Below, piece by piece: positions 29,403 to 47,976 of a stretch of 64,000 bases of DNA (position 1 is its first letter; each line of letters begins with the position of its first letter). Below the pieces are notes generated by a model, which saw only the letters and a program-made list of their open reading frames with translations, was not told the origin of the DNA and made no database searches. Source of the stretch: a virus; the IMG/VR virus record IMGVR_UViG_3300045412_000547; one strand, written 5' to 3'. The position numbers and the translations under genes are program-made.

Positions 29403-30482
29403 ATGGATTGCTCCTCTGTAACACCTATTTCAGCTTTTCAAAGTACAAATCTTAATAGTAAGATTGATTCATTTTCCCGTCTAGGTAATCGTATTAGCCG
29501 GTCTATGGGCGCTCCTATGGTAAATTTGGAGATACATCAAGATCAATTAAATGAAAATATAGCTATTGCCTGTGAAATGTTTGCTAAATTTGCCGGTTAT
29601 ACACAAGAAACTTTAGTATTTGATTCAGATCTTTATAAAGATGGAAAGGGATTAAAGCTTGACGAGTTATTTAGTATTACACCCAATTTTAATCGGGTTA
29701 ATGATCCTTCTAAACCAGTTTATGTAGCAAATATCTCTCTACCTGCAGCTATTTTTTTATCATCAACTTCTCTTTCTTCCACTTACTTGGATGGTATTTT
29801 TAAAAATCAAATTTTAACACAAACAAATTTTCTATCAGTTATCAATTTTAACAATTCTTTATTATCTGCTTTTACACCTTCATCAAATATAAATGCTGAA
29901 AAAATAGTTAACAGCTTTGACTATGATATTATGGATTATAGAAAAGTTATTGACGTTTACGATTTTGAAGAAGGAACATCTACGGGTATAAACACGCTAT
30001 TTACTATTGAGCAAACTTTAGCGCAACAAACATATTTTAGTTACGCTATGGGCAACTATGGTTTTGATTTAATTAGTTGGTATGTTTTGAAACAATGGTT
30101 AGATATTAGAGAAAACATGTTAGCAATAAAAAGAGCGGTCAATTTTGATGAACGTACACAATATCTAACCATGAACCCTCCACCACGCACGCCGGGATCA
30201 GGCTCTCGGTTTTATGGAGTCGTTGGTTGCTATGTTGAAAGACCTTTAAGGGACTTAATAAAAGAACCTTGGGTATATCAATATGCTCTAGCTTTATCAA
30301 AAATAGCTATTGGTAACGTTCGTGGAAAATACACAGGTACTACATTATTTGGAGGAGGGCAAATTAATTCTAATGATTTACTAAGTCAAGGTCTTAAAGA
30401 AAAAGAGGAATTAGAGCGAAAGCTTTACGAAGGTGCACCAGGTTTAGGCGATGCAGCACCACCTGCGTTTTTTGTCGGGTAA
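29403..30482 (+). CDS. 13: Neck protein (T4 gp13-like)
   Basis: MGAPMVNLEI..DQL, WVYQYALAL.K...G..RGKY...LFGGGQIN. Confidence 0.85.
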   Translation: MDCSSVTPISAFQSTNLNSKIDSFSRLGNRISRSMGAPMVNLEIHQDQLNENIAIACEMFAKFAGYTQETLVFDSDLYKDGKGLKLDELFSITPNFNRVNDPSKPVYVANISLPAAIFLSSTSLSSTYLDGIFKNQILTQTNFLSVINFNNSLLSAFTPSSNINAEKIVNSFDYDIMDYRKVIDVYDFEEGTSTGINTLFTIEQTLAQQTYFSYAMGNYGFDLISWYVLKQWLDIRENMLAIKRAVNFDERTQYLTMNPPPRTPGSGSRFYGVVGCYVERPLRDLIKEPWVYQYALALSKIAIGNVRGKYTGTTLFGGGQINSNDLLSQGLKEKEELERKLYEGAPGLGDAAPPAFFVG

Positions 30483-30483
30483 A

Positions 30484-30942
30484 ATGCGCCCTATTCAAAA
30501 AAACGATAATTTTAGACAAGGTTTATTTAAGCCAAAAAACCCGCAAAAATATCTTGGCAAAGGCATGCCTGTATATAGGTCCGGTTGGGAACTTAAATTT
30601 TTTAGATGGTGTGATGACAACCCTAATGTTCTAGAATGGGCCAGTGAGTCTGTAATCATTCCATATGTAAGCCCAATCGATCAAAAAGTACATAGATATT
30701 ATACAGACGGTATAATTGCTATAAAAGAACAAGATAATATTAAAAAATATATTATTGAAATTAAGCCTAGTAAGCAAACAGTCAAACCAGAAAATTCAAA
30801 TAGAAAAAAAATGTCGACAAAAATATATGAGGCTACAAGGTATGTACAAAATACAGCTAAATGGGAGGCTGCTAAAAAATGGTGTGAAAAAAAGGGTTAT
30901 AAATTTTTAATCCTTACTGAGAAAGAATTAGGAATTAGATAG
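30484..30942 (+). CDS. 4: Head completion nuclease (T4 gp4)
   Basis: FKPKNPQKY.G..VYRSGWELKF..WCD.NP.VLEWASE..IPY...HRYYTD...EIKP. Confidence 0.93.
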   Translation: MRPIQKNDNFRQGLFKPKNPQKYLGKGMPVYRSGWELKFFRWCDDNPNVLEWASESVIIPYVSPIDQKVHRYYTDGIIAIKEQDNIKKYIIEIKPSKQTVKPENSNRKKMSTKIYEATRYVQNTAKWEAAKKWCEKKGYKFLILTEKELGIR

Positions 30943-30949
30943 TATAAAG

Positions 30950-30957
30950 AATAAATA
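30950..30957 (+). promoter_or_regulatory. T4-type late promoter upstream of gp21
   Basis: AATAAATA 6 nt before ATG. Confidence 0.7.
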
Positions 30958-30963
30958 TTTTAT

Positions 30964-31635
30964 ATGGCTTTTAGACTACTTGTAGAAACACCAGCTCCGG
31001 ACGAGCAATTTGAGTATATTGTTGAGGAAAAGAACCCTAAAGAACCATCTAAATTGTATATTTCTGGGCCTTACATGATGTGTGAAACTATTAATAAAAA
31101 TCTGCGTAAATATAGTAAAGATGACATGACGCGGGAAGTTAATCGTTATGTTAAGGAAATGGTTGAACCTAAAAGGGCCATGGGTGAATTAAATCACCCT
31201 ACATCTGCAGAAGTAAATTTAGAACGCGCTTGTCATATGGTTACAGAACTTAAAATGCAAGACAATTTTGTATTTGGAAAATCCCAAGTACTTTCTACTC
31301 CAATGGGATTATTAGTTCGTTCTCTTATTAATGATGGTGCAAGAGTTGGCATGTCTAGCCGTGCCTTGGGTAAGCTTGTAGAGGAAAAAAATGGAATTAA
31401 TCTTGTTCAAGATATGAGATTAATTGCTATAGATTGTGTTGCTGATCCGTCGTGTCCTAAAGCTTTTGTTAATGGTATTTTAGAAAGCAAAGAATTTGTT
31501 TTAAAAGCTGACGGTAGCTTAGAAGAGTTTTATGGTAAGTTTGAGCAAGCAGTTTCAAATTTACCCAAAAAAGAAGTTGCCCACTATTTAAAGGAACAAA
31601 TTATGTCTTTCTTTAAATCTCTTGGAAATCATTAA
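30964..31635 (+). CDS. 21: Prohead protease (T4 gp21)
   Basis: AMGELNHP, LSTPMG, GMSSRALG, DCVADPS..AFVNGILE. Confidence 0.96.
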   Translation: MAFRLLVETPAPDEQFEYIVEEKNPKEPSKLYISGPYMMCETINKNLRKYSKDDMTREVNRYVKEMVEPKRAMGELNHPTSAEVNLERACHMVTELKMQDNFVFGKSQVLSTPMGLLVRSLINDGARVGMSSRALGKLVEEKNGINLVQDMRLIAIDCVADPSCPKAFVNGILESKEFVLKADGSLEEFYGKFEQAVSNLPKKEVAHYLKEQIMSFFKSLGNH

Positions 31636-31656
31636 CAATAGCAATAAATAATAAAA

Positions 31657-31959
31657 ATGAGCAAAGCTAAAAAAAAGACAGTTTCGCAGGATGAAATTGA
31701 CGTAAAAAAGTCGGATCTGGATAAAGATGGTAAATTGTCAAAATATGAAAAGGCGAGAGGTAAAGCTATTGATAAAGCTAGAGGCGGAAACGGCAAAATG
31801 CCTAAAAAGACGAATAATGAAAGTATAAGCGTTGTAAGGTTTTTACAGCAACTTTCTCAAAAAAATTATGCCGAGGCTAATAAATATTTAAGCGAGGTTG
31901 TAGATTCAAAGTTAAAGACTAAGATTCAAACAGCCTTGAAGAACAAATTATTTAAATGA
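31657..31959 (+). CDS. Small prohead-core-associated protein with EF-hand-like loop
   Basis: DLDKDGKLSKYE; lies between gp21 and gp22. Confidence 0.55.
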   Translation: MSKAKKKTVSQDEIDVKKSDLDKDGKLSKYEKARGKAIDKARGGNGKMPKKTNNESISVVRFLQQLSQKNYAEANKYLSEVVDSKLKTKIQTALKNKLFK

Positions 31960-32840
31960 GCAAATCTGTTACAGACATTCTTAAAGAAGCAACCAAAGAT
32001 ATTCTTTCTGAAGATATCTTAAAAGAAATCGAATTGGCTTTCAATACTACAGTTAATGATAAAGTAAAAATTCATGTTGAAAAAGCTCTCAATGAACAGG
32101 ATGAGGATTACGCAAAAAAATTAGAAAAGCTTGTTGATGTTATCGATGCTGACCATACAACTAAATTAAATCAAGTTGTCGAAGCAATAGATAAAAATCA
32201 TGCTAAAAAACTTCAAACGATTGTCGAAAAATACGAAAAGACAATTAAAGAGGAAGCGGTAGGTTTCAAAAATAATTTAGTTGAACAAGTAAGCAAATAT
32301 TTAGAAATTTACCTGGACGAGAAAATTCCTTCCGCTCAGATTCAAGATGCAGTAAACAATAAGAGAGCAACTAAAATGTTAAGCGAAATGCGTAATATGC
32401 TTTCTGTTAATGATGCTCTTGCAAAAGACAGCATTAAAGAAGCTGTTATAGATGGAAAGAATAGACTTGATGAAGCTGTTAAACAGCTTGAAGCCGCTGA
32501 TTCAAAAGTTAAGAAATTAAGTGAATCATTAAATAAAGCTGAAGCACAGCTTGTCTTAGAAAAGAAATTATCTTCATTAGATAGCGATAAAAAAGCTTAC
32601 ATGAAGAAAATGCTTTCTGGCAAGACGCCGCAGTTTATAAATGAAAATTTTGATTATACACTTAAGCTGTTTGAAAAAACTGAAGAAGAGCGGCTTGCAA
32701 ATCTTAAGGAAGAGGCAGTAACAGAGAGCGTAGCTCAAAAAGTAGATCGCCCTGTTATTGAAGAAAAAGCAAAGTCTAGTAATGATGAACTAAGAGACCC
32801 TGCTTTTGATCTCTATCTTAAAGAGCTCAATAAATATTAA
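31956..32840 (+). CDS. 22: Prohead scaffold protein (T4 gp22)
   Basis: Coiled-coil, acidic, directly upstream of the major capsid gene. Confidence 0.85.
   Translation: MSKSVTDILKEATKDILSEDILKEIELAFNTTVNDKVKIHVEKALNEQDEDYAKKLEKLVDVIDADHTTKLNQVVEAIDKNHAKKLQTIVEKYEKTIKEEAVGFKNNLVEQVSKYLEIYLDEKIPSAQIQDAVNNKRATKMLSEMRNMLSVNDALAKDSIKEAVIDGKNRLDEAVKQLEAADSKVKKLSESLNKAEAQLVLEKKLSSLDSDKKAYMKKMLSGKTPQFINENFDYTLKLFEKTEEERLANLKEEAVTESVAQKVDRPVIEEKAKSSNDELRDPAFDLYLKELNKY
32829..32836 (+). promoter_or_regulatory. T4-type late promoter for gp23
   Basis: AATAAATA within the last codons of gp22. Confidence 0.7.
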
Positions 32841-32912
32841 TTTTTAGAGCTTCTGAGGCATTTGCCTGAATAGAATCCCAAGGTCGACACATTAAGGAGA
32901 CTTAATATATAT

Positions 32913-34421
32913 ATGGCACAAATTCGTCCTTCACAGGCGTACATCGATGAGAATCGCGCAAAGGTATTGCTCGAAAAGTGGAGCCCAGTATTGGATTACA
33001 CTTCCGACAATGTCCGCGCAATCGAAGATGATCACACCCGCTTAAACACCGCTATTCTTTTGGAAAACCAAGAGAAGTGGTGCTTTGAAGCTTACGGTAC
33101 AAATAGTGGTAACATTGCTGGTGGTACGACAAGTGTTTTCGGTTCCGTCAATGCTGGCGGTACCGGTGGCGCTTTTCCCCCGAACAGTGACTCCTATGCC
33201 CCGGGTGATGCTCGCCTTCCTAAGATTCTTATTCCGATGATTCGTCGTACGTTCCCGGAATTGATCACTAACGAAATCGTTGGTGTTCAGCCGATGAGCG
33301 GCCCTGTTGGATTAGCTTTTGCCCTCAGATACAGATATGACGGTGATGCACTCGGTGCTACTAACGGTAAAGGTCTTGACGGCTCATTAGCCTCAGGCAC
33401 TACCGTGTGGCCGGGCGCTTCAGCCGGCGGTTCTGATGGAGCTGAATTAGGTTATCAGTACCTCGATACGAGATTTACTGGTACATCTTCTTCTGCTTTG
33501 GTTGGTGATTCAACTTTCTTCCCCTTCGTCCCTCAGGACCAAGGTGTTGCTCAGTTGCTCGCTAACTTTGAGTTAACCTCTAAGATTCCCCAGATTGTAG
33601 TTAGCTTCGAAAAGACAGCTGTTGAAGCTGGAACTCGTAGGCTCGCTGCTCGCTGGTCAGTTGAACTCGAGCAAGACTTGAAGAACATGAACGGTATTGA
33701 TATCGACACGGAACTCACTAACGCAATGTCGTATGAGTTACAGGCCGAAATCGACCGTGAAATGATAATCAGAATGATCCAGACTGCACTCAATGCCGGT
33801 TTCGGCACTGGGTTCTCGGTATGGTCACCCGCTTCGGCGGATGGTCGTTGGCTCGTAGAGCGCAACCGCGATTTCTATCAGAGGTTAATCATCGAGGCTA
33901 ACAGAATCGCTGTCCGTAACCGCCGTGGCGCGGCTAACTTCGTCGTTGCAACACCTCGTGTGTGTGCAATCCTCGAAATGTTACCCGAGTTCCAGTGGGC
34001 ACCGGTACAGGGAAATGTTAACACACAGCCCGTTGGTGTAGCAAAGGTTGGTTCACTTGGTGGCCGTTTCAACGTTTACCGTGATACGAGAACAGAAGCC
34101 CAATTCCAAGCCTACCCCGGAGGTAACTTCGGTGGTATCGGTGCTGGCGCCGCTGGTGGCACACGCTCCCAGCCGGTTGAATACGCGCTTCTCGGTTATA
34201 AGGGTCCGGAGTTTTATGACACCGGTATCATTTATTGCCCGTACATCCCGGTAATGGTGCAGCGCACAATTGGCCCGAACGACTTCTCTCCGAGAGTCGG
34301 GTTGCTTACTCGCTATGGCGTTGTAGACAACATCTTCGGTGCTAACTTGTACTATCACGTAATTATCTTACGTGGTTTAGGCACTGCATTTACACCTGGA
34401 ACACAATCCGTGTACTTCTAA
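32913..34421 (+). CDS. 23: Major capsid protein (T4 gp23)
   Basis: LLENQ, GVQPMSGPVGLAFALR, ELEQDLK, EIDRE, YCPYIP, TRYG. Confidence 0.98.
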   Translation: MAQIRPSQAYIDENRAKVLLEKWSPVLDYTSDNVRAIEDDHTRLNTAILLENQEKWCFEAYGTNSGNIAGGTTSVFGSVNAGGTGGAFPPNSDSYAPGDARLPKILIPMIRRTFPELITNEIVGVQPMSGPVGLAFALRYRYDGDALGATNGKGLDGSLASGTTVWPGASAGGSDGAELGYQYLDTRFTGTSSSALVGDSTFFPFVPQDQGVAQLLANFELTSKIPQIVVSFEKTAVEAGTRRLAARWSVELEQDLKNMNGIDIDTELTNAMSYELQAEIDREMIIRMIQTALNAGFGTGFSVWSPASADGRWLVERNRDFYQRLIIEANRIAVRNRRGAANFVVATPRVCAILEMLPEFQWAPVQGNVNTQPVGVAKVGSLGGRFNVYRDTRTEAQFQAYPGGNFGGIGAGAAGGTRSQPVEYALLGYKGPEFYDTGIIYCPYIPVMVQRTIGPNDFSPRVGLLTRYGVVDNIFGANLYYHVIILRGLGTAFTPGTQSVYF

Positions 34422-34480
34422 TCAACTGATTAGAATCGACAAAAAGAAAGTATTTTCACCTAGTAAGTCCTAGGAAATTT

Positions 34481-34514
34481 AAAAAGAGGGATCTTGCGGT
34501 CTCTCTTTTTTTTT
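34481..34514 (+). terminator. Rho-independent terminator after gp23
   Basis: AAGAGGGATC-TTGC-GGTCTCTCTT stem-loop followed by a T-run. Confidence 0.85.
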
Positions 34515-34547
34515 GTAAAAATATAAACTTTTAGAATAAATATTTAC

Positions 34548-34913
34548 ATGGCAATTTTTAATAGCATGGTAGCAAACCCGCAGGCAACAGACCCGGTTTC
34601 ATTAAATCTTTCTTTAACATCTAACGGTGTTATTATTAGAAGTTTAGGTAGTAATGCTAGTGCCATTTTATTTAATAAAGAAAATACTCTTACTGGTTCA
34701 ACAACGTTAATCACTGTTACAGCAAACAACGTTGCCACAAGATTTTCTATTGATAATAGTTATAATAATAAGCTTATTTCTATATTATTAACTAACGGTA
34801 CAGCATTTGAATTTACTTTAAATATTGCAACAAACGATGCTCAGACACTTACAGATGCTGGCTTTAATTCGGTTAGTCCTGAAAAATTAAGACGTACAAA
34901 TTTAGAAGGCTAA
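34548..34913 (+). CDS. Hypothetical late (probably virion) protein
   Basis: AATAAATA at 34535-34542; beta-rich 121 aa. Confidence 0.6.
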   Translation: MAIFNSMVANPQATDPVSLNLSLTSNGVIIRSLGSNASAILFNKENTLTGSTTLITVTANNVATRFSIDNSYNNKLISILLTNGTAFEFTLNIATNDAQTLTDAGFNSVSPEKLRRTNLEG

Positions 34914-35828
34914 TTACTGCCTGACAGTTTTCGTAAAGTACTTAAACTTATCAACTAGGTTTCTATCTAATAAATCATAACTGCTTGCGCGAGTTGGATT
35001 AATATCAATACCGCCACGCCGGACATATAAACACGATACAACTAACTCTTCAGGGTTAAATTTATCATAAAAACGTTTATAAATTGTCTCACAAATCTCT
35101 TCATGAAAATGACATTCATCTCGGAATGATATAATATATTGCAGTAATGAAACTTTATTAATTTCATACCTACCTTTGTAATGTATGTAAACATCGCCCC
35201 AATCTGGCTGAGATGTTACTCTGCAGTTACTTTTTAATAAAGCAGAATGAAATCTTTGGGTCCTAGATTCTGGTATTTCAATAGCATTTAAAAGATTAGG
35301 ATTCTCACTATAAGATAATGCTTGTATCATCGTTACATCAATTTCTAATTCTAAATTAGGATATTCACTATTGGGAAATACTGGAGGATAATAAGCACCA
35401 TCATCAATAGATGTAGTAGATCTTACATATACAAGGACATCTGTTTTTAATAGTAAAGAAAGATCTATACTAATTTTATCTTGTAATTGATTCAATACAC
35501 TTATAATATTACCTTTAAATTTTTCCATGTTAAATGAGTTAAGATACAATTTGATCGATTTAGATTCTACGATGTACTCACTATTACAGGGATAAACAAT
35601 TTTTGCTATTGCTGCTATTGGCATGCCTTCTGCTGTTAAACAAGATACTTCATATGCATTCCAAATATCATATCCTTTAAAAGGTAAATTGTCGTCCTTT
35701 ATGCCTAAATGTTTTCTATTATTTTGTCTTGGTTCAGGTACTAATAAAGACGGGTCATATGTACATTTGTAACCAGTAATCTTGCCTAAATGCTTTGAAA
35801 TATTACTATTATCGAGTTGTGTGTTCAT
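34914..35828 (-). CDS. queF: NADPH-dependent preQ0 reductase (bimodular QueF)
   Basis: DIWNAYEVS, IVESKSIKLYLNSFN, LKSNCRVTSQPDWG, FHEEICE, RRGGIDINP. Confidence 0.96.
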   Translation of the reverse strand: MNTQLDNSNISKHLGKITGYKCTYDPSLLVPEPRQNNRKHLGIKDDNLPFKGYDIWNAYEVSCLTAEGMPIAAIAKIVYPCNSEYIVESKSIKLYLNSFNMEKFKGNIISVLNQLQDKISIDLSLLLKTDVLVYVRSTTSIDDGAYYPPVFPNSEYPNLELEIDVTMIQALSYSENPNLLNAIEIPESRTQRFHSALLKSNCRVTSQPDWGDVYIHYKGRYEINKVSLLQYIISFRDECHFHEEICETIYKRFYDKFNPEELVVSCLYVRRGGIDINPTRASSYDLLDRNLVDKFKYFTKTVRQ

Positions 35829-36396
35829 TTATTATTAATTTAATTTGATTCATCCTTTCTTCAATTGTTCCTTTTAGTCTATATACCCTATCTTTCCATT
35901 GCGATTGCTTTATATAGTGTTCGAACTTTTCTATCATTATATTTCTAAAATTCTGATCTACACTTCTTTCACCGTCATCAATCAGTATTACATCAGTAGG
36001 GTCAGGATATAAAATAATATCGTATTTAGTATGATATCTAAGCCAATACCACATAGACTGCATCCATACATTATCACTAACTAGTTTTTTATCGTGAAAA
36101 TAATCTGTATATAAAAACCCATCCATAAGACACCTATCATGAACTGCATTTTTACATGATGACAATATATCAGCTCTAAATAAATTTTCTAGTTCTTTAT
36201 TAATAATTAACAGTTGAGTAATGTCATTAGCACCTTCTTCGTTTATACTAACATTAAATTCTCTTTTAACTAACCGAGTAACTTCATCAATATAAAAAAA
36301 CCTATCTCCAAGCCATTTAATACTCTCTTCTTCTTTCATTTTCTTTAGCAAAGTAGTTTTACCTGAACAATGCGGGCCCGTAAACGTTATATTCAC
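35809..36396 (-). CDS. P-loop nucleotide kinase-like protein (AAA_28 family)
   Basis: FTGPHCSGKTTL, HDRCLMDG, DDGERS. Confidence 0.8.
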   Translation of the reverse strand: MNITFTGPHCSGKTTLLKKMKEEESIKWLGDRFFYIDEVTRLVKREFNVSINEEGANDITQLLIINKELENLFRADILSSCKNAVHDRCLMDGFLYTDYFHDKKLVSDNVWMQSMWYWLRYHTKYDIILYPDPTDVILIDDGERSVDQNFRNIMIEKFEHYIKQSQWKDRVYRLKGTIEERMNQIKLIINEHTTR

Positions 36397-36406
36397 TAAC
36401 TATATC

Positions 36407-36556
36407 TTAACGGAATAATTTTTTAATACAAGCTTTTAATTTCTTAAAAATAGTTATTGTGGCATTGTCAGCTATTTCTTGTAATTTAAAATATCCCTTT
36501 AGTAGATGATTATCATCATCAACCCAAACATACTTCGGGCGCTCTTTTTTCTTCAT
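36407..36556 (-). CDS. 49-aa hypothetical protein
   Basis: Not in ORF track; ATGA-coupled to the Nmad1 gene: MKKKERPKYVWVDDDNHLL... Confidence 0.4.
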   Translation of the reverse strand: MKKKERPKYVWVDDDNHLLKGYFKLQEIADNATITIFKKLKACIKKLFR

Positions 36557-36900
36557 TTACACCATTTTCTTCTTTTTACTATTTCGGCAATAATACAATA
36601 TACCGAAGTATCACTAAAAGCATCGAATACAGGCTCATTTGCTGTATCAAAAGTTTTTTTACGTAGCACAAGATTAATTAATCTTTGAATCTTATCATTC
36701 AACCGTACAACAATAGCAGAAACTGATGCTGTTATATCTTCTTGTTTAAATAAATCGGAACCTAGGCTAATATTATGTGGTCCGTAGTCAAATTGTTTTT
36801 TACAAAACGTCTCATAATGTTCAGATTGTATTTTTTTAAATTCACTACATGTTTCAGGATATGTAGTTTCTACATATTGAATAATTTCTTGAGAGGTCAT
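36553..36900 (-). CDS. Nucleotide modification-associated domain 1 (Nmad1/DUF1599) protein
   Basis: KKQFDYGPHNI...VRLNDKIQRL.NL...NEPVFDAFSD..VYCIIA. Confidence 0.8.
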   Translation of the reverse strand: MTSQEIIQYVETTYPETCSEFKKIQSEHYETFCKKQFDYGPHNISLGSDLFKQEDITASVSAIVVRLNDKIQRLINLVLRKKTFDTANEPVFDAFSDTSVYCIIAEIVKRRKWCK

Positions 36901-37469
36901 TTCTCTAATATCTTACATCCTTTTAAAAAACTTATCCATAAATCTAGCGCCACTTTTCTTAATTTAGTATAGACATCGTCTAAAGATAATCCATCAATTT
37001 GCTCTCCTTGACTCATCAAAATTTCACCTTCATCTACACCCGGTGTGACACGATGTATGACACAACCAGCCAATTTATATCCTTCACGGAAAGCCCTCTC
37101 TTGCGGATTAAATCCTTTCATAGAAGGAAACTTATCAATAAGGCCGGGATGCAAATTATATATCTCATACTTTTCACAAATCTGCTTTGGTATAATTCTT
37201 AAGTAGCCGTGTAAAGTCACAATCGGATTACTATATACACTCAAAACATTTTCATAATTTTCAATAGTCGGTTTATTCGGTATCATATACCAGGTATGTG
37301 GCTTATTTAATTTAGTAGCACGAAACTTAGTTAGTTCGATTAATTTTTGATTTATCCCGTCCTTGGTATGTCTATTGGTAACTATACTGTCAGGATACAC
37401 ACCAAGTGCATTACTTAAGTCGTAAATTTCAGTTCCTGTTTGTGAAAAAAATGTAACCCAGGGTCTCAT
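36897..37469 (-). CDS. PurN-like formyltransferase, probable preQ1 formyltransferase (DpdN-like)
   Basis: FSQTG, LHGYLRII, YNLHPG, GCVIHRVTPGVDEG; in an operon with dpdA-like and queF. Confidence 0.8.
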   Translation of the reverse strand: MRPWVTFFSQTGTEIYDLSNALGVYPDSIVTNRHTKDGINQKLIELTKFRATKLNKPHTWYMIPNKPTIENYENVLSVYSNPIVTLHGYLRIIPKQICEKYEIYNLHPGLIDKFPSMKGFNPQERAFREGYKLAGCVIHRVTPGVDEGEILMSQGEQIDGLSLDDVYTKLRKVALDLWISFLKGCKILEK

Positions 37470-38278
37470 CTACGAATAATTTTTTTAAACATATTTACGT
37501 TATAATTTAAAATATTCAATTGCGTAGGTGTAAGCTCGTGGTCAATTAAATCAGCTAACTTTGTTGTTGGTTTTGTGGGTATACCATAATCAGCATCATA
37601 TTTTAAGCCGTGTATAGCGGCGACAACCGGGTTACTTGTATCACAACTTACAATATTATAAATATTTTTATCAACATAAAATCTAAATTCTTTTGCTAAC
37701 GAACAACCAAGTAAATGGTGTGGTTTATTCCAATTCCATAAACCACAATCAATTAGCTGTGATATAAACCGCTTTCTTCCTGAACAAAACTTTTCTAATT
37801 TTGAATGACCTTCACCGGTTACTTGATAATAACTTAAATCAAAGCTAATCGCAATCATATCTGTTTCATTAGACATAAATTCATAACAATCTTTCAAGTC
37901 TTGCCAATTTTTACCTTGTATAGCACCAATAGCTCGAGAAAAGAAAGAACTTTTTAATGCTCCGGCCTGATCTCTAAAATTTATATAACTATCAATCGTA
38001 GCATCTGAATCTTCTAAAACATCTGGTACAATAAACATATTTGGCTGTATGTCTAGTGCTGCTTGAAAAAATTTATCCCTATTAAAAGCAGTACCGAGTT
38101 CAAATATAGAGTTATCTAATAGAACTTCTCGGTTATGTATATTCCGTGCTGTTTTAAAATAATTGTAATAATTAGATTTTGTCTCAAATAAATGAACTAA
38201 TGCGTAGTCAAAATCATTATATGTCTGTGAATAATCTATAATAGATATGGGAGATTCGTGAGATACTTTTATTAGCAT
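37466..38278 (-). CDS. dpdA: TGT-fold 7-deazaguanine transglycosylase (divergent DpdA, probably DpdA3-type)
   Basis: LLDNSIFE, IVPDV, GAIQG, HHLLG, SCDTSNP match the order of TGT/DpdA catalytic motifs; operon context. Confidence 0.72.
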   Translation of the reverse strand: MLIKVSHESPISIIDYSQTYNDFDYALVHLFETKSNYYNYFKTARNIHNREVLLDNSIFELGTAFNRDKFFQAALDIQPNMFIVPDVLEDSDATIDSYINFRDQAGALKSSFFSRAIGAIQGKNWQDLKDCYEFMSNETDMIAISFDLSYYQVTGEGHSKLEKFCSGRKRFISQLIDCGLWNWNKPHHLLGCSLAKEFRFYVDKNIYNIVSCDTSNPVVAAIHGLKYDADYGIPTKPTTKLADLIDHELTPTQLNILNYNVNMFKKIIRR

Positions 38279-38284
38279 CCTAAT

Positions 38285-38312
38285 ATTATATAAGTAAATA
38301 CTCGTATATCAA
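38285..38312 (-). promoter_or_regulatory. Sigma70-like early/middle promoter of the dpdA operon
   Basis: TTGATA-N16-TATAAT, 6 nt before the dpdA ATG. Confidence 0.6.
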
Positions 38313-41284
38313 TGTCTGATTATCCACAGTATTTAGGAAATTATTTAGGAATAGTAATACAGAATAACGACCCAGCTAAACGTGGTCGAATTAAGGTTTT
38401 TGTTCCCCATATAACGCCCACAGTTTACAAAAACTGGAATGAAGTCAATAAAGATAAGCAGTTTAAGTTTTTAGGGGCAAATATTAATAGCGATTTGACA
38501 GATATAATGGAGGACTTAAAAAGAATTTTGCCTTGGGCTGAATGTGCAGCTCCTATAGCAGGGGAGTCGAGTAGTGGTCGTTATAATAAATTTTACAATG
38601 TCGGTTCTATTAGCGATAGTAGTAAGTTAAAGTTAACAGTGAATTCATTGTCAAGCAGTGAAATAAATTATAAGAATGTCGTTGAAAAATATCAGTATAC
38701 ACAAAATTTTGATCTTATAGGAGAAAAACCCGGTGCAGTTTACGATAAAGATTATTTTCGGTTAAATGATGCTTTTATTAACCCTAAGGAAACAAACGCA
38801 AACAATACAAACATTTTTGCTTTTAATTATTTACCTGAAACTTACAGCAATGCTGCAAAAGGAAGTTTTAGTATACCCAACGTAGGCGCGCACGTCTGGA
38901 TATTTTTTAATGCAGGTGACCCTTTAAAACCAGTTTATTTTGCTGCTTCTTACGGTAATGAAGATTGGAGAACAATTTACCAGACTACCACGGGTGGCAG
39001 CGAGTCTTTTGATGGAACATCATTTAATGCTGATAAAGGTTTAGATTATCCAGGAACTTACGAAAACATACAAAAAGAAAATTATGATATTAACACAGAA
39101 GTTTATAGAAACAAATATGTACTAAATCAAAAAGGTGGTACTATACAAATAGTAAATACCGATAACCGAGAATCAATAAAGATGTCTCATTTTTCCGGTT
39201 CATTTAAAGAATTTACAAATCTAGTAAATGTTGAACTTGCTACTAATAATGATCAAAAGTTAGTTTTGAATGATCAGTTTTTAACAGTTCGGGGAGATAG
39301 AAACGAATTTACTGGAAATAATTTAGATTTTTTAGTACAAGGAGATCATTATTTAAAAATTGGAAATTTAAAAGCTGACTATCATAAAAAATGGAGAGAG
39401 ATAGTTAAAGAAATAGCAGATACAAAGCAGTTATTTGAAATCAGAAGAGCTGAAAGAATAGAAGATAGTATTTTACAGCTTACAGCTCCCGGTCAATTTA
39501 AAAGCGGGCAGCATGCAGATTGTCCAGTCTGTACTGCAATTAAAGATATGTATGGTAAAAAAGATAGATACTGGGCTTATAATAACTCTACAAAAAATGA
39601 TTACAAAAATGAAGTTTTTGGTACTATAGCTGACACTGCGGGCGATTTTATTTTTAGTCAAACTATAATTGGAGGTGCAATCGGCTTTGCAGCAAAAAAA
39701 GTAGGTGTTCAGGGAAAGCCGGAATTTGGAAGCGGTCCAGAATTATCTCAAAAATTCTTTGGTGGTGATTCAGGAGGAAACAATGGACCTGGATGGATAT
39801 TTGGGGTAAGGTGCCCGGCTTGTAATCCCGACCCCGGTGAAGAACGTTTTATAATGCTTGGCGAATCAAGACCCACTCCAGGTAAGAGTCCAAGTTCTGC
39901 AGATGGTACATTTGCAAATGAAACGCGTAAGCGGTTCGTTAAAGAATTAACTCTTAGAAAAATGAAAGAATTAGCAGATCTAGAAAAGAAAATGGGAATT
40001 GGTGGAAGTCAAATCATTGAAATAACAAAGCACAAATTCGAAAACATTGGTATGACAATGAATGATTTTGGGTCTGTTCGAGTAGATGCAAAAGGTAAGA
40101 TGGAAGTTTCAGAAGTACGTGTTGGAAAAGGTGGGGTATTTTATAATAGAACACCTTCACCTCTTGTAGAATATGTTCATGTAGATGATCTACCAGGGGG
40201 TAATTACACATTAAACGTATGCAATCGTTACAACCTTCAAGTAGGTGCCGGGGGTATAAATTTTAAATCTTATGGGCCAGTGAATATGACAGGCACGATA
40301 ATGAATATTGCTGGTACCCAGGTTAATGTAGCAAGTGAAAACGAAGTCAATATTGATGGCGGAAAGCGGTTATCGTTAGTGGGCGATATACTTAGTTTAC
40401 GTCAGCGTAATGGTGGTCAAGTTGTTGTCGAAGGCAATCTAGGAGTAACAAAAAACGTTATTATAGCCGGTGGCCTTCATGTTGAAGGAGAACTATGCGC
40501 TAATCATATAACACTACCAAAAGAAATTCAAGCCACAGAACAAGCCACGCTCCAAGGAGCTCCCACAGTATTAGAACCAATGTCTAATACAAAAGGTAAA
40601 ATACTTGGTTTTGGTGTACCCCTTTCAAATTGGCCGGTACCTATAGTTAATGAATTTGGTACTGTAGCATATGAACCAGGTACTGCAGGTGTTTCGGGCC
40701 CTCCATATATAGGATTTACAGATGCTACTATTCCATGTGGACGGCTACAAGTTAATACACCTATTGGATATATTAAAGCTGATTTAACTGTTGGGTATAT
40801 ACCAGCAGGTACATGCAATGTTCAAGGAACAGATTCTCAAGGTGCAACTGTTATATGCACTAACATAATTCCTATTGAAGTTAAAGCATCTAGATTAATA
40901 TCCGGTGGTCTCGATGTACCGGTTTTAGCATCATCTAATGGTAGTAGTGTGGCAGGATTTGATACTCCAGTATTTGGATCCGGTGTAGGATCAAATCTCC
41001 CGTCAGGACCTATAGGAGGTGCTGGTTTAATTGGTGCAGGATGTGTAAAAGGATCCGATGCAGGTATAGCGGGTCTTAATGCAGAACTAATGCCTATTAT
41101 GATTTACGGTACCGGTAGAGATGAAAATAGTATAACCATTAAACCTCATAGCCACCAGTTTATTGGTATAGCAACAGATCCTAAAGAGCGTAATGTTGAT
41201 GTTAGAGAAGTAGCGCTAGCTATGAATAGTGGATCTCCGGTACCACCAGAACCTGTTAATAATGCGAAAAAGACTAACGCTTAA
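38312..41284 (+). CDS. Baseplate hub / central spike protein (gp5/VgrG-like)
   Basis: GIVIQNNDP..RGRIKV, IPNVGAHVWIFF..GD...PVYFA (gp5 OB-fold); Gly-rich beta repeats; C-terminal HSH. Confidence 0.8.
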   Translation: MSDYPQYLGNYLGIVIQNNDPAKRGRIKVFVPHITPTVYKNWNEVNKDKQFKFLGANINSDLTDIMEDLKRILPWAECAAPIAGESSSGRYNKFYNVGSISDSSKLKLTVNSLSSSEINYKNVVEKYQYTQNFDLIGEKPGAVYDKDYFRLNDAFINPKETNANNTNIFAFNYLPETYSNAAKGSFSIPNVGAHVWIFFNAGDPLKPVYFAASYGNEDWRTIYQTTTGGSESFDGTSFNADKGLDYPGTYENIQKENYDINTEVYRNKYVLNQKGGTIQIVNTDNRESIKMSHFSGSFKEFTNLVNVELATNNDQKLVLNDQFLTVRGDRNEFTGNNLDFLVQGDHYLKIGNLKADYHKKWREIVKEIADTKQLFEIRRAERIEDSILQLTAPGQFKSGQHADCPVCTAIKDMYGKKDRYWAYNNSTKNDYKNEVFGTIADTAGDFIFSQTIIGGAIGFAAKKVGVQGKPEFGSGPELSQKFFGGDSGGNNGPGWIFGVRCPACNPDPGEERFIMLGESRPTPGKSPSSADGTFANETRKRFVKELTLRKMKELADLEKKMGIGGSQIIEITKHKFENIGMTMNDFGSVRVDAKGKMEVSEVRVGKGGVFYNRTPSPLVEYVHVDDLPGGNYTLNVCNRYNLQVGAGGINFKSYGPVNMTGTIMNIAGTQVNVASENEVNIDGGKRLSLVGDILSLRQRNGGQVVVEGNLGVTKNVIIAGGLHVEGELCANHITLPKEIQATEQATLQGAPTVLEPMSNTKGKILGFGVPLSNWPVPIVNEFGTVAYEPGTAGVSGPPYIGFTDATIPCGRLQVNTPIGYIKADLTVGYIPAGTCNVQGTDSQGATVICTNIIPIEVKASRLISGGLDVPVLASSNGSSVAGFDTPVFGSGVGSNLPSGPIGGAGLIGAGCVKGSDAGIAGLNAELMPIMIYGTGRDENSITIKPHSHQFIGIATDPKERNVDVREVALAMNSGSPVPPEPVNNAKKTNA

Positions 41285-42240
41285 TTATATCCAATATCTA
41301 CATAATACAAAGCTTCTAAATCTTCGCCCCCGGCGTAACTAATTGCACTTTGAAGGTCTTGTTGTATCTCATTTAATTTCCAGAGATATGTATTATGCTG
41401 CATGGGAATTAATTCCAATTTACCTTCTACGTTATTTTCCGTTCCTTTATTATAAAAACTAGCAGATCCGTAATATTCTTTATAAAATAATGTCGGGCTA
41501 TTTGGGTCTCTAACTAGTAGTGAGGGGCTGTCGTATAAACATGCAAACATACCGCCGCACATTACCATGCTGGCCCCGGCTACAATAGCTTTTGCTATAT
41601 CTCCATTACAACGTATTCCTCCATCGGCAATAATATCTACCTTACATCTTTCCGCTATGCTTTGAATACAGGTAAACATAGGCATTGTAAAGCCAGTTTT
41701 ATCTTTTGTAGTACATACATATCCTTGACCAATGCCTACTTTTATACCATCCGTACCCCATCCAACCAAATCTTCTGCAGCTTGAGAGGTAGCAATATTG
41801 CCTGCTATAACATATGTTTCGCTTGTTTTTAAATTACAAATATGTTCTAACATGTTTTTTACAAACGAATGGTGACCGTGGGCAACATCAATAGTTACAA
41901 AATCTAATCGTAAATTGTTTGCAAATATATTTTCTAAATCTATATAATCTTTATCATGTACCCCTACACTAATAGAAATAGTCTTCCACCCTTCTTTATT
42001 AGCCTTTTTTACAAACTCAAAATTATCTACATTAAATCTATGCATAATATAAAAGTATTCGTTTTCAGATAATAGTTTTGCTAATTTTTCATTGATAGAA
42101 CATTTCATATTGGAAGGCACAACAGGCACTTTAAATATATGGTTACCTAACTTAGTAAATGTAGAAGCAACTTTACGAGTAGGAAGACCAGACATTTTTG
42201 GAATTAAGAAAATGTCTTTATAGTGTAAGAAACGCTTCAC
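41281..42240 (-). CDS. guaC: GMP reductase
   Basis: YIMHRF, IDVAHGH, IAGNIAT, KVGIGQGYVCTT, IIADGGIR, DLQSAISYAGG. Confidence 0.93.
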   Translation of the reverse strand: MKRFLHYKDIFLIPKMSGLPTRKVASTFTKLGNHIFKVPVVPSNMKCSINEKLAKLLSENEYFYIMHRFNVDNFEFVKKANKEGWKTISISVGVHDKDYIDLENIFANNLRLDFVTIDVAHGHHSFVKNMLEHICNLKTSETYVIAGNIATSQAAEDLVGWGTDGIKVGIGQGYVCTTKDKTGFTMPMFTCIQSIAERCKVDIIADGGIRCNGDIAKAIVAGASMVMCGGMFACLYDSPSLLVRDPNSPTLFYKEYYGSASFYNKGTENNVEGKLELIPMQHNTYLWKLNEIQQDLQSAISYAGGEDLEALYYVDIGYN

Positions 42241-42257
42241 CTATCTAATTATAGGTA

Positions 42258-42473
42258 TTATTTTAATTTTCTACTACTTAACCAATTAGATCTATGGTTC
42301 ATTACCCAATCCATCAATGCTCTCTCAAAACCAACATCAAAACCTGCTTTTTCAGACATATACCATTTATTTTCTAATATACAATTTCTCTCTTCAAGAA
42401 ATCGTTGATATAATGCAGATGTTGAGTAGTTATATTCCATACAAATGTGCTGGCCAGACAAACACCTACTCAT
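42258..42473 (-). CDS. DUF4032-like small protein
   Basis: SALYQRFLEERNCILENKWYMSEKAGFDVGFERALMDW. Confidence 0.7.
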   Translation of the reverse strand: MSRCLSGQHICMEYNYSTSALYQRFLEERNCILENKWYMSEKAGFDVGFERALMDWVMNHRSNWLSSRKLK

Positions 42474-42491
42474 TTATATTATTTATTGATT

Positions 42492-42968
42492 TTATGGTCG
42501 ATAATGTATGTCGAGATCCCTTTCATTGACAGTATCATACACAGTATTAAATTTATCTGTAAAGGTAAATTTTCTTAACATAAAATTATTATAACTTATT
42601 TCACCGATAAGAAAAACAGTATAAGGATTTTTATCATAATCTACATACGCTAAAACAAATCGCTTTATATCTTCTGTTAGTGAGTTAAATTTACGTCTCA
42701 CTAATAATCTTTTTGGTGATTTAGTATACGTTGTTGTTTTAACTTGCGCTCCATTGATACCAAAATCAACTCCATCGTCTCCTTTATTGTTCCATACATC
42801 CCAATTTGGACTTACATTAATAAAAAGCCCGTAAGCAACTTCACCAAGGCGGCCAACTAAATGATTTTTAAAAGACCCAGTATTTTTATACACGTCCTTT
42901 TTTTCAACTAATAAGGCAAATTCTTTAGCTTTTTGAAATTGATCTTCAGAAAGAAGTATTTTTTTCAC
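42492..42968 (-). CDS. Putative PD-(D/E)xK nuclease-like protein
   Basis: GRLGEVAY...GDDGVDF...QVKTT pattern. Confidence 0.55.
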   Translation of the reverse strand: MKKILLSEDQFQKAKEFALLVEKKDVYKNTGSFKNHLVGRLGEVAYGLFINVSPNWDVWNNKGDDGVDFGINGAQVKTTTYTKSPKRLLVRRKFNSLTEDIKRFVLAYVDYDKNPYTVFLIGEISYNNFMLRKFTFTDKFNTVYDTVNERDLDIHYRP

Positions 42969-42986
42969 TATGAATATTTAAAAAAT

Positions 42987-43077
42987 AAAAAAAGCTTTTC
43001 AAGTATACCAGTAACCTTCGAAAAGATTCCCACCTACCCGCCCCTGGTATACGAATATACTACGTCGCCTTCAAAAG
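42987..43077 (-). ncRNA. Candidate structured small RNA / attenuator
   Basis: GC-rich intergenic stretch; 9-bp stem 43003-43011/43044-43052, two UUCG hairpins, G-tract, flanked by an AATAAATA promoter and a U-run. Confidence 0.55.
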
Positions 43078-43080
43078 TAT

Positions 43081-43311
43081 TTATTGGGACTCATATAACT
43101 TTTTTTGTAAGTTTAAAATAAATTCTTTTTTTTCTTCTTTTAGCTTATTTTTTAATTTTTCTAATTCGTAAAGCGTTACATCTACTCTTAAACTTTTTAA
43201 AAATTGCTCTTTAGGCTCTACGTTACAACCAGAAAATGAGTTTTCAAATATATAAAACAAAACTCCTATTTCTTCATCTGTACAATTTTTTAATACTTCG
43301 GAAGTTATCAC
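43081..43311 (-). CDS. Hypothetical protein
   Basis: 76-aa ORF coupled to the nrdB stop. Confidence 0.55.
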   Translation of the reverse strand: MITSEVLKNCTDEEIGVLFYIFENSFSGCNVEPKEQFLKSLRVDVTLYELEKLKNKLKEEKKEFILNLQKKLYESQ

Positions 43312-44372
43312 AGTTTAATATCTTCAAAAGCCGTATCATCAATATTGGTATCGCGAGCCCCGATCTTATATGCAGATATTTCTGTTTCTTGAGGTGCTAC
43401 CTGAACCTTACTACTATCTAAGTAGCTATCCAGCCATCCTGAGATAGGATTATCTTTTTGATTAAAAATCTTTTTATAACCTAAAGAGCGTAATCTTGAA
43501 TCACATAGCCATTTTGCATAACCTCCGAGTACATCTGCATTAAGACCCAATAAAGAACCTTTACTAAAAAGATAGTGTGCCCATTCAACTTCACTTTGAG
43601 CAGCCTGTTCATATACTGCGTAAATTTTATCCTCGCTCTTTTTCACCATTGAAGTAAAGCCTTCTTTATCTTCATCACGTAAAATTTTTAGTAAATTACT
43701 AGTTATTGCAAAATGCTGCGATTCATCACGTTGAATTAATTTAATAATTTTAGCATTACCCTCCATTTTACCACGATAGCCAAAATAGAAAGAACATGCA
43801 AAGCTTACATAAAAAACCAGCCCTTCCATACAGTTAACAGATAATATACAATCAAATATCTTTTGTTTTACATCTTTTTTTGTATCGTCCCCTAATATTT
43901 TATCAAAATTATTTCTTATCAGTTCAGCGCGTTCTACAATTTCCTTATCTTCCATAATACTATCAAAAAAAGCAGATGCATCCGGATGAACATTGTTAAG
44001 TAAATAAGAATAACTATAGCTATGAATACCTTCAAAGCGTTGCCAAGTATTCATACATATTTCTAGTTCTGGATTTGATACATAATCTTTTAATGAATGT
44101 ATAGACCTTGAAAGCATACTATCCCCAAGAGTTTGAAACTTTAAATTTGTATCAAATACAAAACGTTCCGGTCCGTCTAGTTCCTTATAATCATTTCTAT
44201 CTTTCTGTAAAGTTATTTCATGAGGCCACCAAAAAAATTCTTCTTGTTTTTTAAACAGCTCAAAAAAGATAGGGTACTTAAATTTATCATATCTCTGTAA
44301 ATTTAAATCCTCGCCAAAAAATAGCGGTTGTTTTGTATAGTCTATGTTTTTAAGATTAAGCACGGTTTTCAT
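43308..44372 (-). CDS. nrdB: Ribonucleotide reductase class Ia beta subunit
   Basis: FFWWPHE, FQTLGDS, FEGIHSYSY, EGLVFYVSF, RDESQH, VAPQE. Confidence 0.96.
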   Translation of the reverse strand: MKTVLNLKNIDYTKQPLFFGEDLNLQRYDKFKYPIFFELFKKQEEFFWWPHEITLQKDRNDYKELDGPERFVFDTNLKFQTLGDSMLSRSIHSLKDYVSNPELEICMNTWQRFEGIHSYSYSYLLNNVHPDASAFFDSIMEDKEIVERAELIRNNFDKILGDDTKKDVKQKIFDCILSVNCMEGLVFYVSFACSFYFGYRGKMEGNAKIIKLIQRDESQHFAITSNLLKILRDEDKEGFTSMVKKSEDKIYAVYEQAAQSEVEWAHYLFSKGSLLGLNADVLGGYAKWLCDSRLRSLGYKKIFNQKDNPISGWLDSYLDSSKVQVAPQETEISAYKIGARDTNIDDTAFEDIKL

Positions 44373-44378
44373 TATTTA

Positions 44379-46634: not shown

Positions 46635-46686
46635 ATAAATTGAAAAAAATACTTATTAATCTTACTGTATAAAAAACAGTTTTTTA

Positions 46687-47277
46687 CTAAAGAAGCATAA
46701 AATTATTTTTTTTATACAATTCTATAATTTTTTCGTTACTAAAATTATAAATATTCCGATTACTTAAGATAAAAATATTATTACTACTTATAGCTTGGCT
46801 GAAATGAACTTGTTTAGAATTATATTCGTATAGTTTAGTCAAACTTAAATCTTTTCTACTTTTTAGTGTTATTTTTTTTAATTCAGTACCGTTTATAGGA
46901 TATACGCCTTTTTCTAAATAAACACTACATTCATTACAAGACAAATTAAATTCTGATAAAATTTGCTCATATAATTTAAGAGAAATAGAATCTTTAATAT
47001 TTAAGTTTAATGCTTCTAGCCTTTTTACCAAATTAATATATTCTGGCTTTAAATATATTTCTACACCCTTAAAAAATTTTAAAACCGGTATAGCATTGGC
47101 TGTAGGGTGAACAACGCTTCGAGGATTTAATGATTCTTTAAAACAAACTCTTTCTTGATCATACTTATTTTTAATTAGTTGACCAATAAAAATAAAAGGA
47201 TATTTGTTTTGAGAAATCAAATTAAACTGCTCTATATCAGGCGCTACATTTACTAACGAAACATTAATCATGTACAT
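46687..47277 (-). CDS. Hypothetical protein
   Basis: 196-aa ORF with TTGATT..TATAAT upstream. Confidence 0.55.
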   Translation of the reverse strand: MYMINVSLVNVAPDIEQFNLISQNKYPFIFIGQLIKNKYDQERVCFKESLNPRSVVHPTANAIPVLKFFKGVEIYLKPEYINLVKRLEALNLNIKDSISLKLYEQILSEFNLSCNECSVYLEKGVYPINGTELKKITLKSRKDLSLTKLYEYNSKQVHFSQAISSNNIFILSNRNIYNFSNEKIIELYKKNNFMLL

Positions 47278-47317
47278 GATTATAATACATGAAACGGTAA
47301 ATCAATAATATTATTTT

Positions 47318-47686: not shown

Positions 47687-47687
47687 A

Positions 47688-47921
47688 TTATGAAACTGGG
47701 AATGTATAGGACAAAATACCTTTTGGTAGTGTATAGACTTTGCCGCGTTGTTTACCGGAAAGTTCTTTAACAACTACCGTTAATCGATCGCCGGTAATAA
47801 TAGGTCCCATACTCACATCCACATTACCTAAATTTATAGTGTAGGCTCTAATACCCTTCTTTACATCATAAATTTGTAACCGGTTGCGTCCCATTAAGGC
47901 CGCTGTATACAGTTTTTGCAT
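47688..47921 (-). CDS. Hypothetical late protein
   Basis: Start at MQKLY; minus-strand CATAAATA at 47932-47939. Confidence 0.55.
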   Translation of the reverse strand: MQKLYTAALMGRNRLQIYDVKKGIRAYTINLGNVDVSMGPIITGDRLTVVVKELSGKQRGKVYTLPKGILSYTFPVS

Positions 47922-47931
47922 ATCTTCTAAA

Positions 47932-47966: not shown

Positions 47967-47976
47967 TTTCAAAGAA

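Follow-up and report, generated by a model that had tools for sequence, protein, structure and literature searches.

In a 64,000-nucleotide stretch of the IMG/VR virus record IMGVR_UViG_3300045412_000547 (hereafter, the window), a minus-strand unit of six open reading frames (ORFs; positions 34914–38278) is, judged from its genes, an uncultured new member of the known DpdA3/DpdN system, which replaces guanine in phage DNA by 7-(formylamino)methyl-7-deazaguanine (fdPreQ1). The phage is T4-like and of low GC content (~31%). Because its DpdA3, DpdN, kinase and QueF are orthologous to those of Flavobacterium phage immuto, the same product is predicted, and fdPreQ1 in place of all G would be expected from the genes alone. 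The kinase that constantly neighbours DpdA3 suggests, short of proof, that the base is swapped at the level of the nucleoside or nucleotide. We place at about even odds a swap on free nucleosides or nucleotides before replication, counting in a ribonucleotide variant through a phosphoribosyltransferase (PRTase) and ribonucleotide reductase (RNR) that is improbable in itself. The specific reading developed here is given a probability of roughly 0.45: DpdA3 would be the first enzyme of the tRNA-guanine transglycosylase (TGT) fold to swap the base of deoxyguanosine in its free form, whether nucleoside or nucleotide, and the kinase and DpdN, the latter acting much as PurN does on glycinamide ribonucleotide (GAR), would complete a pre-replicative supply of 7-deaza-dGTP analogues.

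All six ORFs of the original prediction were recovered as one mostly overlapping minus-strand unit, listed here in the order of transcription.

37466–38278, minus strand: 7-deazaguanine transglycosylase of the DpdA3 subfamily, a minimal 270-amino-acid (aa) barrel with the TGT fold, from similarity to immuto DpdA and CP220 gp056 and from a fold match
36897–37469, minus strand: DpdN, PurN-like formyltransferase, 190 aa (Formyl_trans_N, PF00551, 5.5e-16)
36553–36900, minus strand: putative DUF1599/Nmad1-family all-helical protein, 115 aa (orf115; phrog_1485, 2.4e-12; orthologues match PF07659)
36407–36556, minus strand: basic 49-aa ORF, isoelectric point (pI) 9.8, with no family match
35809–36396, minus strand: AAA_28 P-loop nucleoside/nucleotide kinase (AAA_28, 7.5e-13, 49.4 bits against a cut-off of 27; phrog_2107 'thymidylate kinase', 5.5e-24)
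34914–35828, minus strand: QueF, two-domain (type II), NADPH-dependent reductase of preQ0 to preQ1 (QueF_N, 2.2e-35, and QueF, 4.2e-22)

The genes for the TGT-fold protein and DpdN, DpdN and orf115, and orf115 and the 49-aa ORF overlap by 4 nt at each junction; the 49-aa ORF and the kinase gene are separated by 10 nt, and the kinase and QueF genes overlap by 20 nt.

The proposal that these genes form a deazaguanine module of the formyl-preQ1 type is borne out by comparison with immuto, to whose proteins the window's DpdA3, DpdN (immuto gene 67), kinase and QueF are 42, 48, 28 and 46% identical, respectively. The genes lie on one strand in near-identical order, and FolE and QueD are orthologous too. 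In the virion DNA of immuto, dG is absent and fdPreQ1 amounts to 345,000 per 10^6 nt (Cui, Hutinet et al. 2023, PMC10516641). The window's unit differs in the addition of orf115 and the 49-aa ORF between DpdN and the kinase, in the presence nearby of GMP reductase and RNR, and in its position amid T4-like late structural genes; in immuto, what lies close to DpdA is a gene for a MazG-like NTP pyrophosphohydrolase and one for a PRTase.

The TGT-fold protein, for which a comparison with the DpdA subfamilies had been suggested, belongs to DpdA3. It is 42% identical to immuto DpdA over 98% of the query (2e-55, tblastn) and 42–43% identical to the CP220 group, gp056 included (~1e-48, tblastn), and gp042 of Cellulophaga phage phiST (CGPG_00065) is reached only indirectly, by way of a homologue in Chryseobacterium phage MA9V-3 that is 24% identical to the window's protein and 43% to that of phiST. 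The protein has no match among Pfam models, that of tRNA-TGT included, and comparison of the DpdA3 alignment profile with PDB sequences returned nothing at E ≤ 10. As there is no solved relative by sequence, the fold is shown through structure prediction. The AlphaFold2 model (pLDDT 91.8) matches the TGT of Z. mobilis in Foldseek with an E-value of 3e-9, a probability of 1.0 and TM scores of 0.68–0.71. In VIA the highest scores were Z 18.4 for ArcTGT, 17.6 for DpdA (PDB code: 7ui4; root-mean-square deviation 3.2 over 232 residues) and 16.2 for bacterial TGT, with the top unrelated barrel at 15.5. Across all DpdA3 members, distant ones too, the aspartates D55 (in LLDNS) and D213 (in SxDTSNP) do not vary, and from their position in the motifs we infer that they are equivalent to Asp102 and Asp280 of TGT.

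The architecture of DpdA3 is pared down in comparison with its relatives. At 270 aa, against 373 for TGT, 413 for DpdA and 577 for ArcTGT, it is without some 100–300 residues of insertions and extra domains, and the family alignment has no conserved zinc-binding Cys or His. Members of the family are acidic, with a median pI of 5.6 (range 4.7–6.9, n = 111). Natural DpdA3::QueF fusions of 531–568 aa were encountered among metagenomic proteins (P0005–P0007; L147 6001–7701). A further long form (P0008; L145 984–2411, and L146) carries a C-terminal extension of ~210 aa with GIY-YIG-like sequence, which may be a fused or inserted homing endonuclease, and an AAA_28 gene comes directly after it. No DpdA3::kinase fusion was found among the longer fused forms in a search that was limited by shared words.

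The second gene encodes the PurN-like formyltransferase that had been predicted, and the family profile of DpdN finds PurN/GAR transformylases as its top solved relatives (3.3e-18). The Asn-His-Asp triad (N105, H107, D146) is invariant in 17 sequences, and the N-terminal FFSQTGxE loop aligns with the xxSGxGSN loop of PurN, its phosphate-binding N-terminus. DpdN has no extra domain and no nucleic-acid-binding domain, and would be the enzyme that gives fdPreQ1 its N-formyl group. The QueF at the other end of the unit is full-length, as had been claimed, with both domains, the ESKSIK motif at residue 88, Cys202 and FHE at 241–243 all in place. It matches TIGR03138 at 2e-78 with 263.8 bits, under the curated equivalog cut-off of 293.45, and is thus a diverged member.

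The predicted P-loop kinase also holds up: its orthologues match AAA_28 in 18 of 18 cases and dNK in 8 of 18. Profile comparison gave as top solved relatives a deoxynucleoside kinase (dNK; 3.9e-6), the ribosylnicotinamide kinase domain of NadR (1.9e-5) and thymidylate kinases (TMPK; 5e-5). The invariant residues comprise the Walker A motif (G7, G12, K13, T15), R41, N52, Q61, D87-R88-C89, D92 and a D141-G142-x-R144 lid. The protein is probably a P-loop nucleoside or nucleotide kinase of the dNK/TMPK type, with a nucleoside or a monophosphate as the candidate phosphate acceptor.

The linkage of these genes was assessed in relatives. By two scans of IMG/VR the DpdA3 gene has at least 530 relatives there, and 110 unique loci were analysed; neighbours were counted on the same strand within 6 kb of DpdA3 in the 81 unique loci that could be evaluated, being free of Ns and extending 4 kb or more downstream. 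A kinase was present just downstream of DpdA3 in 78 of the 81, which upholds its claimed place in the module, QueF in 72, DpdN in 57, Nmad1 in 45 and GMP reductase, placed between DpdN and Nmad1, in 16. Three architectures recur: DpdA3-DpdN-(GMP reductase)-Nmad1-kinase-QueF, DpdA3-kinase-QueF, and DpdA3-kinase alone. In loci without DpdN the kinase gene usually either overlaps the stop codon of DpdA3 or begins immediately after it, and the kinase is retained even where both QueF and DpdN are missing. Three loci have no kinase close by, and in two of them (L119 and L134) DpdA3 (~6900–7800) is an orphan; in L119 it is flanked by a baseplate-spike-like gene and by a 683-aa CHASE2-adenylate/guanylate-cyclase protein, unusual for a phage contig, and L134 has the same layout by ORF size.

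A P-loop kinase-like gene accompanies DpdA3 in every cultured DpdA3 phage that was inspected. In CP220 (Firehammervirus), DpdA3 (gp056) stands between gp055, in which HD is fused with an AAA_33 kinase domain, and gp057, which is 32% identical to the window's kinase and orthologous to it. In phage phiST, gp039 is a MazG protein, gp041 a P-loop protein of the AAA_18 type and gp042 DpdA3, and immuto has a MazG-like gene 63, DpdA as gene 65 and the kinase as gene 68. An AAA_18 gene abuts the DpdA3-like gene of MA9V-3, and in Bacillus phage BSTP12 the gene that overlaps the DpdA3-like gene encodes a protein with a Walker A and a DRF motif. CP220 and phiST thus share with the window DpdA3 and an adjacent P-loop kinase-like gene, have a type of dNTP-cleaving enzyme nearby (HD in CP220, MazG in phiST) and replace G completely, but they are without QueF and DpdN and have other end products (dADG and dDG, respectively). 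The AAA_18 gene of phiST lies upstream of DpdA3, and hhalign of the window's kinase profile with gp041 aligned the P-loop only, so orthology between the two kinases is not demonstrable; across lineages the association seems either to have persisted or to have formed anew with other kinases. These distant lineages (CP220, phiST, MA9V-3, BSTP12) give the link independent weight. Prediction of a DpdA3–kinase complex gave a score of 0.00 against a mark of 0.32, with no answer returned, and is neutral for either reading.

The original prediction had also taken the 115-aa protein for an acidic Nmad1/DUF1599 protein that removes canonical dGTP. The family assignment is plausible but weak: 13 of 17 orthologues match PF07659 (best E-value 1.8e-4) and the ESM Atlas cluster nearest to the model (TM 0.68) has DUF1599 in 16% of its members, while the window's own copy has no match to PF07659 even at E ≤ 10. 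The protein is neutral and not acidic (pI 6.7, net charge 0). Its invariant residues K35, Q36, D38, R66, D69, K70, R73, N88, E89, D93 and D97 (five acidic, four basic) suggest a genuine binding or catalytic site. A role as a MazG-like dGTPase is unsupported. Foldseek searches of the PDB gave iMazG (2q73), YpjD (2gta) and DCTPP1 only at E-values of 4–6 and nothing at E ≤ 0.001; the wide VIA search peaked at Z 6.4 with generic, unrelated helical proteins, and hhalign against the MazG proteins of phiST and immuto gave probabilities below 1%. The gene's distribution likewise lends no support to the proposed removal of dGTP, as Nmad1 is missing from 36 of the 81 loci and from immuto, CP220 and phiST. 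Nmad1 is an optional accessory found almost only alongside DpdN (44 of its 45 loci). The association of Nmad1 with DpdN in the raw counts (Fisher p = 4.6e-10) was rejected as evidence because the two traits change only two to three times each on the DpdA3 tree, which leaves too few independent pairs. The 49-aa ORF was found by tblastn in six loci only, those of the closest relatives.

The unit is sandwiched between two plus-strand late genes, and its promoter lies in the spacer that separates it from the second of these.

32913–34421, plus strand: Gp23 major capsid gene (Pfam, 7.1e-87)
38312–41284, plus strand: gp5-like baseplate hub gene
38285–38312, minus strand: sigma-70-like promoter, TTGATA-16 nt-TATAAT, with 11 of 12 consensus matches

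Position 38312 is base 1 of the divergent gp5-like gene, and the 33-nt spacer carries the promoter, the top-scoring sigma-70-like site within 34300–42600. Of 103 unique related loci, 89 have a TTGAHH-N15-18-TAWWMT element in the 60 nt upstream of DpdA3; among 103 shuffled controls, one does. The end of the -10 hexamer is 6 nt from the DpdA3 start codon in the window, and 6 nt is also the mode across the related loci; the mRNA of the unit is therefore predicted to be leaderless or nearly so. The transcript looks like an early one, read by the host polymerase, placed among late genes. A conserved spacer between divergent genes, at 38279–38312 in the window and at the equivalent place in loci L002–L143, has TTGAYW, ~16 nt containing a recurrent ATTATTTAC element, and TATAAT. 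A scan of 30000–48000 with Rfam at E ≤ 1 returned chance-level matches only, and a preQ1 riboswitch was not found there.

Genes for the precursor pathway are present 20–25 kb from the unit, and a GMP reductase gene lies 3 kb upstream of it.

8652–9461, minus strand: FolE (GTP cyclohydrolase I), step 1 to preQ0 (Pfam, 2.4e-48; 53% identity to immuto FolE)
10754–11386, plus strand: QueD, PTPS family (Pfam PTPS, 9.7e-17; 44% identity to immuto QueD)
12432–13175, plus strand: QueE-like radical-SAM enzyme (Fer4_12, 1.2e-5; 34% identity to MA9V-3 QueE, E 3.5e-32)
41281–42240, minus strand: GMP reductase (NF003966, 5.7e-100; IMPDH/GMPR Pfam, 2.6e-48)

Neither QueC nor a PRTase was found in the window by tblastx with the relatives' genes. 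QueC is encoded in three of five large related contigs, and a type I PRTase in all four large related contigs, in immuto (gene 60) and in a compact operon of locus L147. The GMP reductase gene is on the unit's strand and adjoins class I RNR, the large and small subunit genes of which lie 5–8 kb upstream of the unit on the same strand. Among the relatives, GMP reductase is inserted within the cluster in L015, L016, L018, L021, L025, L027, L034 and others, with six state changes on the tree. The L147 operon reads QueD-QueE-FolE-PRTase-PRA-PH-DpdA3::QueF-DpdN-105 aa-AAA_28-QueC and is followed by thymidylate synthase. All neighbours of its DpdA3::QueF fusion are small-molecule enzymes, with PRA-PH belonging to an all-alpha NTP pyrophosphatase family.

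The pre-replicative mechanism that we favour can be laid out from these genes. GTP would be converted to preQ0 by FolE, QueD and QueE of the window and by a QueC encoded outside it, following the established pathway, and QueF would reduce preQ0 to preQ1, as is established for its family. The substrate of DpdA3 would then be free deoxyguanosine, either as nucleoside or as nucleotide, instead of finished DNA, and its guanine would give way to the deazaguanine. T4-like phages obtain dGMP by breaking down host DNA. The AAA_28 kinase would phosphorylate the modified product, thereby committing it to the dNTP pool, while DpdN would formylate the aminomethyl group on a small molecule, either the base or the mononucleotide. 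An NDP kinase of host or phage and the phage polymerase could complete the route to fully substituted DNA, and the displaced guanine may be removed or recycled by GMP reductase in the window and by the PRTase in relatives.

Several lines of evidence support a step at the nucleoside or nucleotide level. The kinase stands by DpdA3 in nearly all evaluable loci and in distant lineages, and its nearest solved relatives (deoxynucleoside, ribosylnicotinamide and thymidylate kinases) together with the acceptor-side DRC motif and the lid Arg favour the same step. DpdA3 itself is a bare acidic barrel, free of the zinc site and insertions. PurN acts on a 5'-phosphoribosyl amine, and the closeness of DpdN to PurN, with the loop kept and no nucleic-acid-binding domain, would fit a small-molecule substrate here as well. 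The DpdA3::QueF fusions and the L147 operon set DpdA3 among small-molecule enzymes, and the conserved promoter of early type also fits. The known biology of these phages lends further support. Characterised DpdA3 phages (immuto, phiST, CP220) are ~100% substituted whereas the DNA-acting DpdA subfamilies reach at most 30% (PMC10516641), expression in E. coli without its neighbours gave no working DpdA3 (PMC10516641), and, in a passage of PMC10516641 that cites earlier work, the ADG nucleoside is placed in the cytoplasm of CP220-infected cells.

The published mechanism makes DpdA3 a DNA transglycosylase that exchanges G for preQ1 or fpreQ1 in replicated DNA, with DpdN formylating the free or the DNA-bound base; the P-loop protein could then be an ATP-using helper of the exchange, as DpdB is for bacterial DpdA, or a salvage kinase that travels with the cluster. 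We regard this as a serious contender at somewhat under even odds. It is the specialists' own proposal, in which DpdA in every modified phage is taken to mean post-replication insertion (Cui, Hutinet et al. 2023, PMC10516641), and DpdA3 is structurally as near to the DNA preQ0 insertase DpdA (7ui4) as to the tRNA enzymes. Further points weigh with it against a swap on free nucleotides. A Cap10 complex with an NDG modification was the sole substrate of another kind seen in the VIA structure list. To our knowledge, no TGT-family enzyme works on a free nucleoside or nucleotide, and all characterised relatives act on polynucleotides, either tRNA or DNA. Exchange in DNA needs no enzyme to clear dGTP; none that would exclude canonical dGTP was identified in the window, and the four large related contigs (131–158 kb, 60–74% complete by CheckV) have no MazG or HD domain. 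Post-replicative enzymes can moreover reach completeness, as do the T4 glucosyltransferases on hydroxymethylcytosine. The clusters lie amid general nucleotide-metabolism genes (RNR, GMP reductase), so that some of the linkage could be a habit of the neighbourhood, and inside the window's clade the kinase–DpdA3 linkage is mostly inherited, because the kinase state changes only twice on the DpdA3 tree. Net charge and small size are weak arguments, and all of the support for the nucleotide-level swap consists of gene context and protein architecture. What exchange in DNA leaves unexplained is the presence beside DpdA3, across lineages whose P-loop proteins have no detectable similarity, of an acidic kinase-type protein with acceptor-side motifs and no DNA-binding domain, and equally the near-complete substitution in DpdA3 phages only and the failure of DpdA3 in E. 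coli without its neighbours. DpdB is a poor precedent for the kinase, being ParB-like and unrelated to small dNK/TMPK-like enzymes, and DpdA3 is without the zinc subdomain and insertions of the polynucleotide enzymes.

Two other routes were considered. In a ribonucleotide version of the pre-replicative scheme, the PRTase would couple a 7-deazaguanine to phosphoribosyl pyrophosphate, or DpdA3 would use GMP or guanosine, after which the kinase would produce the diphosphate and class I RNR the deoxy form. The recurrence of the type I PRTase in relatives, the RNR genes upstream on the unit's strand and the ribosylnicotinamide kinases in the kinase's family, which have ribonucleoside acceptors, all agree with it. 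However, a nucleotide made by the PRTase would render DpdA3 redundant, yet the universal signature gene is that of DpdA3; recycling of displaced guanine accounts for the PRTase equally well, and no PRTase was found in the window by tblastx; and RNR would have to accept 7-substituted 7-deaza-GDP. We consider this version improbable. Least probable of all, to a degree that makes it hardly credible, is that the genes boost queuosine-type modification of host or phage tRNA and that the virion DNA is canonical. FolE, QueD, QueE and QueC, together with QueF, do make up the bacterial queuosine precursor pathway, and tRNA boosting was raised by Hutinet et al. 2019 for phages without a recognisable DpdA (PMC6884629). 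The closest cultured relatives with an orthologous DpdA3 are nevertheless all fully substituted (PMC10516641), DpdN has no role in queuosine synthesis, and DpdA3 is without both a tRNA-TGT Pfam match and the zinc subdomain.

The pre-replicative swap that we favour resembles established systems of base substitution in its logic. Phage T4 employs a dCTPase (gp56), a dCMP hydroxymethylase (gp42) and a dNMP kinase (gp1), and S-2L and phiVC8 reportedly use PurZ, MazZ and DatZ for 2-aminoadenine. The apparent common logic is that an enzyme altering the base of a mononucleotide, a dedicated kinase and, in the window's relatives, a dNTP-cleaving enzyme together bring about 100% substitution. The enzymes are non-homologous, however, and the window's step would be a transglycosylation by a TGT fold, unprecedented at the nucleotide level. 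With the bacterial Dpd system, in which the DNA preQ0 insertase DpdA works with the ATPase DpdB (PMC10164549), and with phage DpdA1 and DpdA2, the window's DpdA3 shares the TGT-fold catalytic barrel and 7-deazaguanine base substrates; it is much smaller than bacterial DpdA (270 versus 413 aa) and is without the extra elements and conserved zinc Cys/His. The idea of a modified dGTP is not wholly new: such a route was mentioned in 2019, 'as proposed for Campylobacter phages' (Hutinet et al. 2019, PMC6884629), and was replaced in 2023 by the post-replication proposal once DpdA3 had been found.

On how phages reach complete replacement of G by 7-deazaguanines, a single experimental study of DpdA3 exists; it takes post-replicative exchange from homology alone and was unable to reconstitute activity (PMC10516641). 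The mechanistic question raised by the unit is real and testable and is not unique to the window. Should the swap prove to be pre-replicative, it would constitute a new class of reaction for the TGT fold, directly explain the failed heterologous expression of DpdA3 alone, and overturn the published view of post-replicative exchange for every phage with full 7-deazaguanine substitution (immuto, phiST, CP220 and the clade with its at least 530 IMG/VR relatives). It would also supply the missing enzyme set for enzymatic synthesis of 7-substituted 7-deaza-dGTPs, analogues used in sequencing and synthetic biology. The DpdA3 family is abundant in freshwater and marine viromes, and given the number of its relatives the answer bears on evasion of restriction and CRISPR by a large share of environmental T4-like phages. 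To this the window adds a well-preserved example of the DpdA3/DpdN pair, variations in Nmad1, the 49-aa ORF and GMP reductase, and an early promoter that is conserved and has a start of the leaderless type.

Some further features of the window were noted. Behind the major capsid gene there is a strong terminator-like hairpin of the intrinsic type (34481–34510, plus strand; 13 pairs and a T run), and a 121-aa ORF (34548–34913, plus strand) meets the end of QueF point to point, these convergent genes abutting with no spacer. A DUF366 protein (PF04017, 2.5e-22) is encoded at 23001–23603 on the plus strand of this phage, which is predicted to make 7-deazaguanine. Adjoining QueE is a second AAA_28 protein of 251 aa (5.6e-8; 13901–14656, plus strand), apart from the DpdA3-linked kinase, and a cytidylyltransferase-like protein (4.9e-10) is found at 6022–6687 on the plus strand. 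Together these two resemble a split NadR, with ribosylnicotinamide kinase and nicotinamide mononucleotide adenylyltransferase functions, and may act in NAD salvage. T4-like character is seen also in a SegE-type GIY-YIG homing endonuclease (1.5e-28; 3474–3887, plus strand) beside UvsY (2.6e-7; 2758–3147, minus strand).

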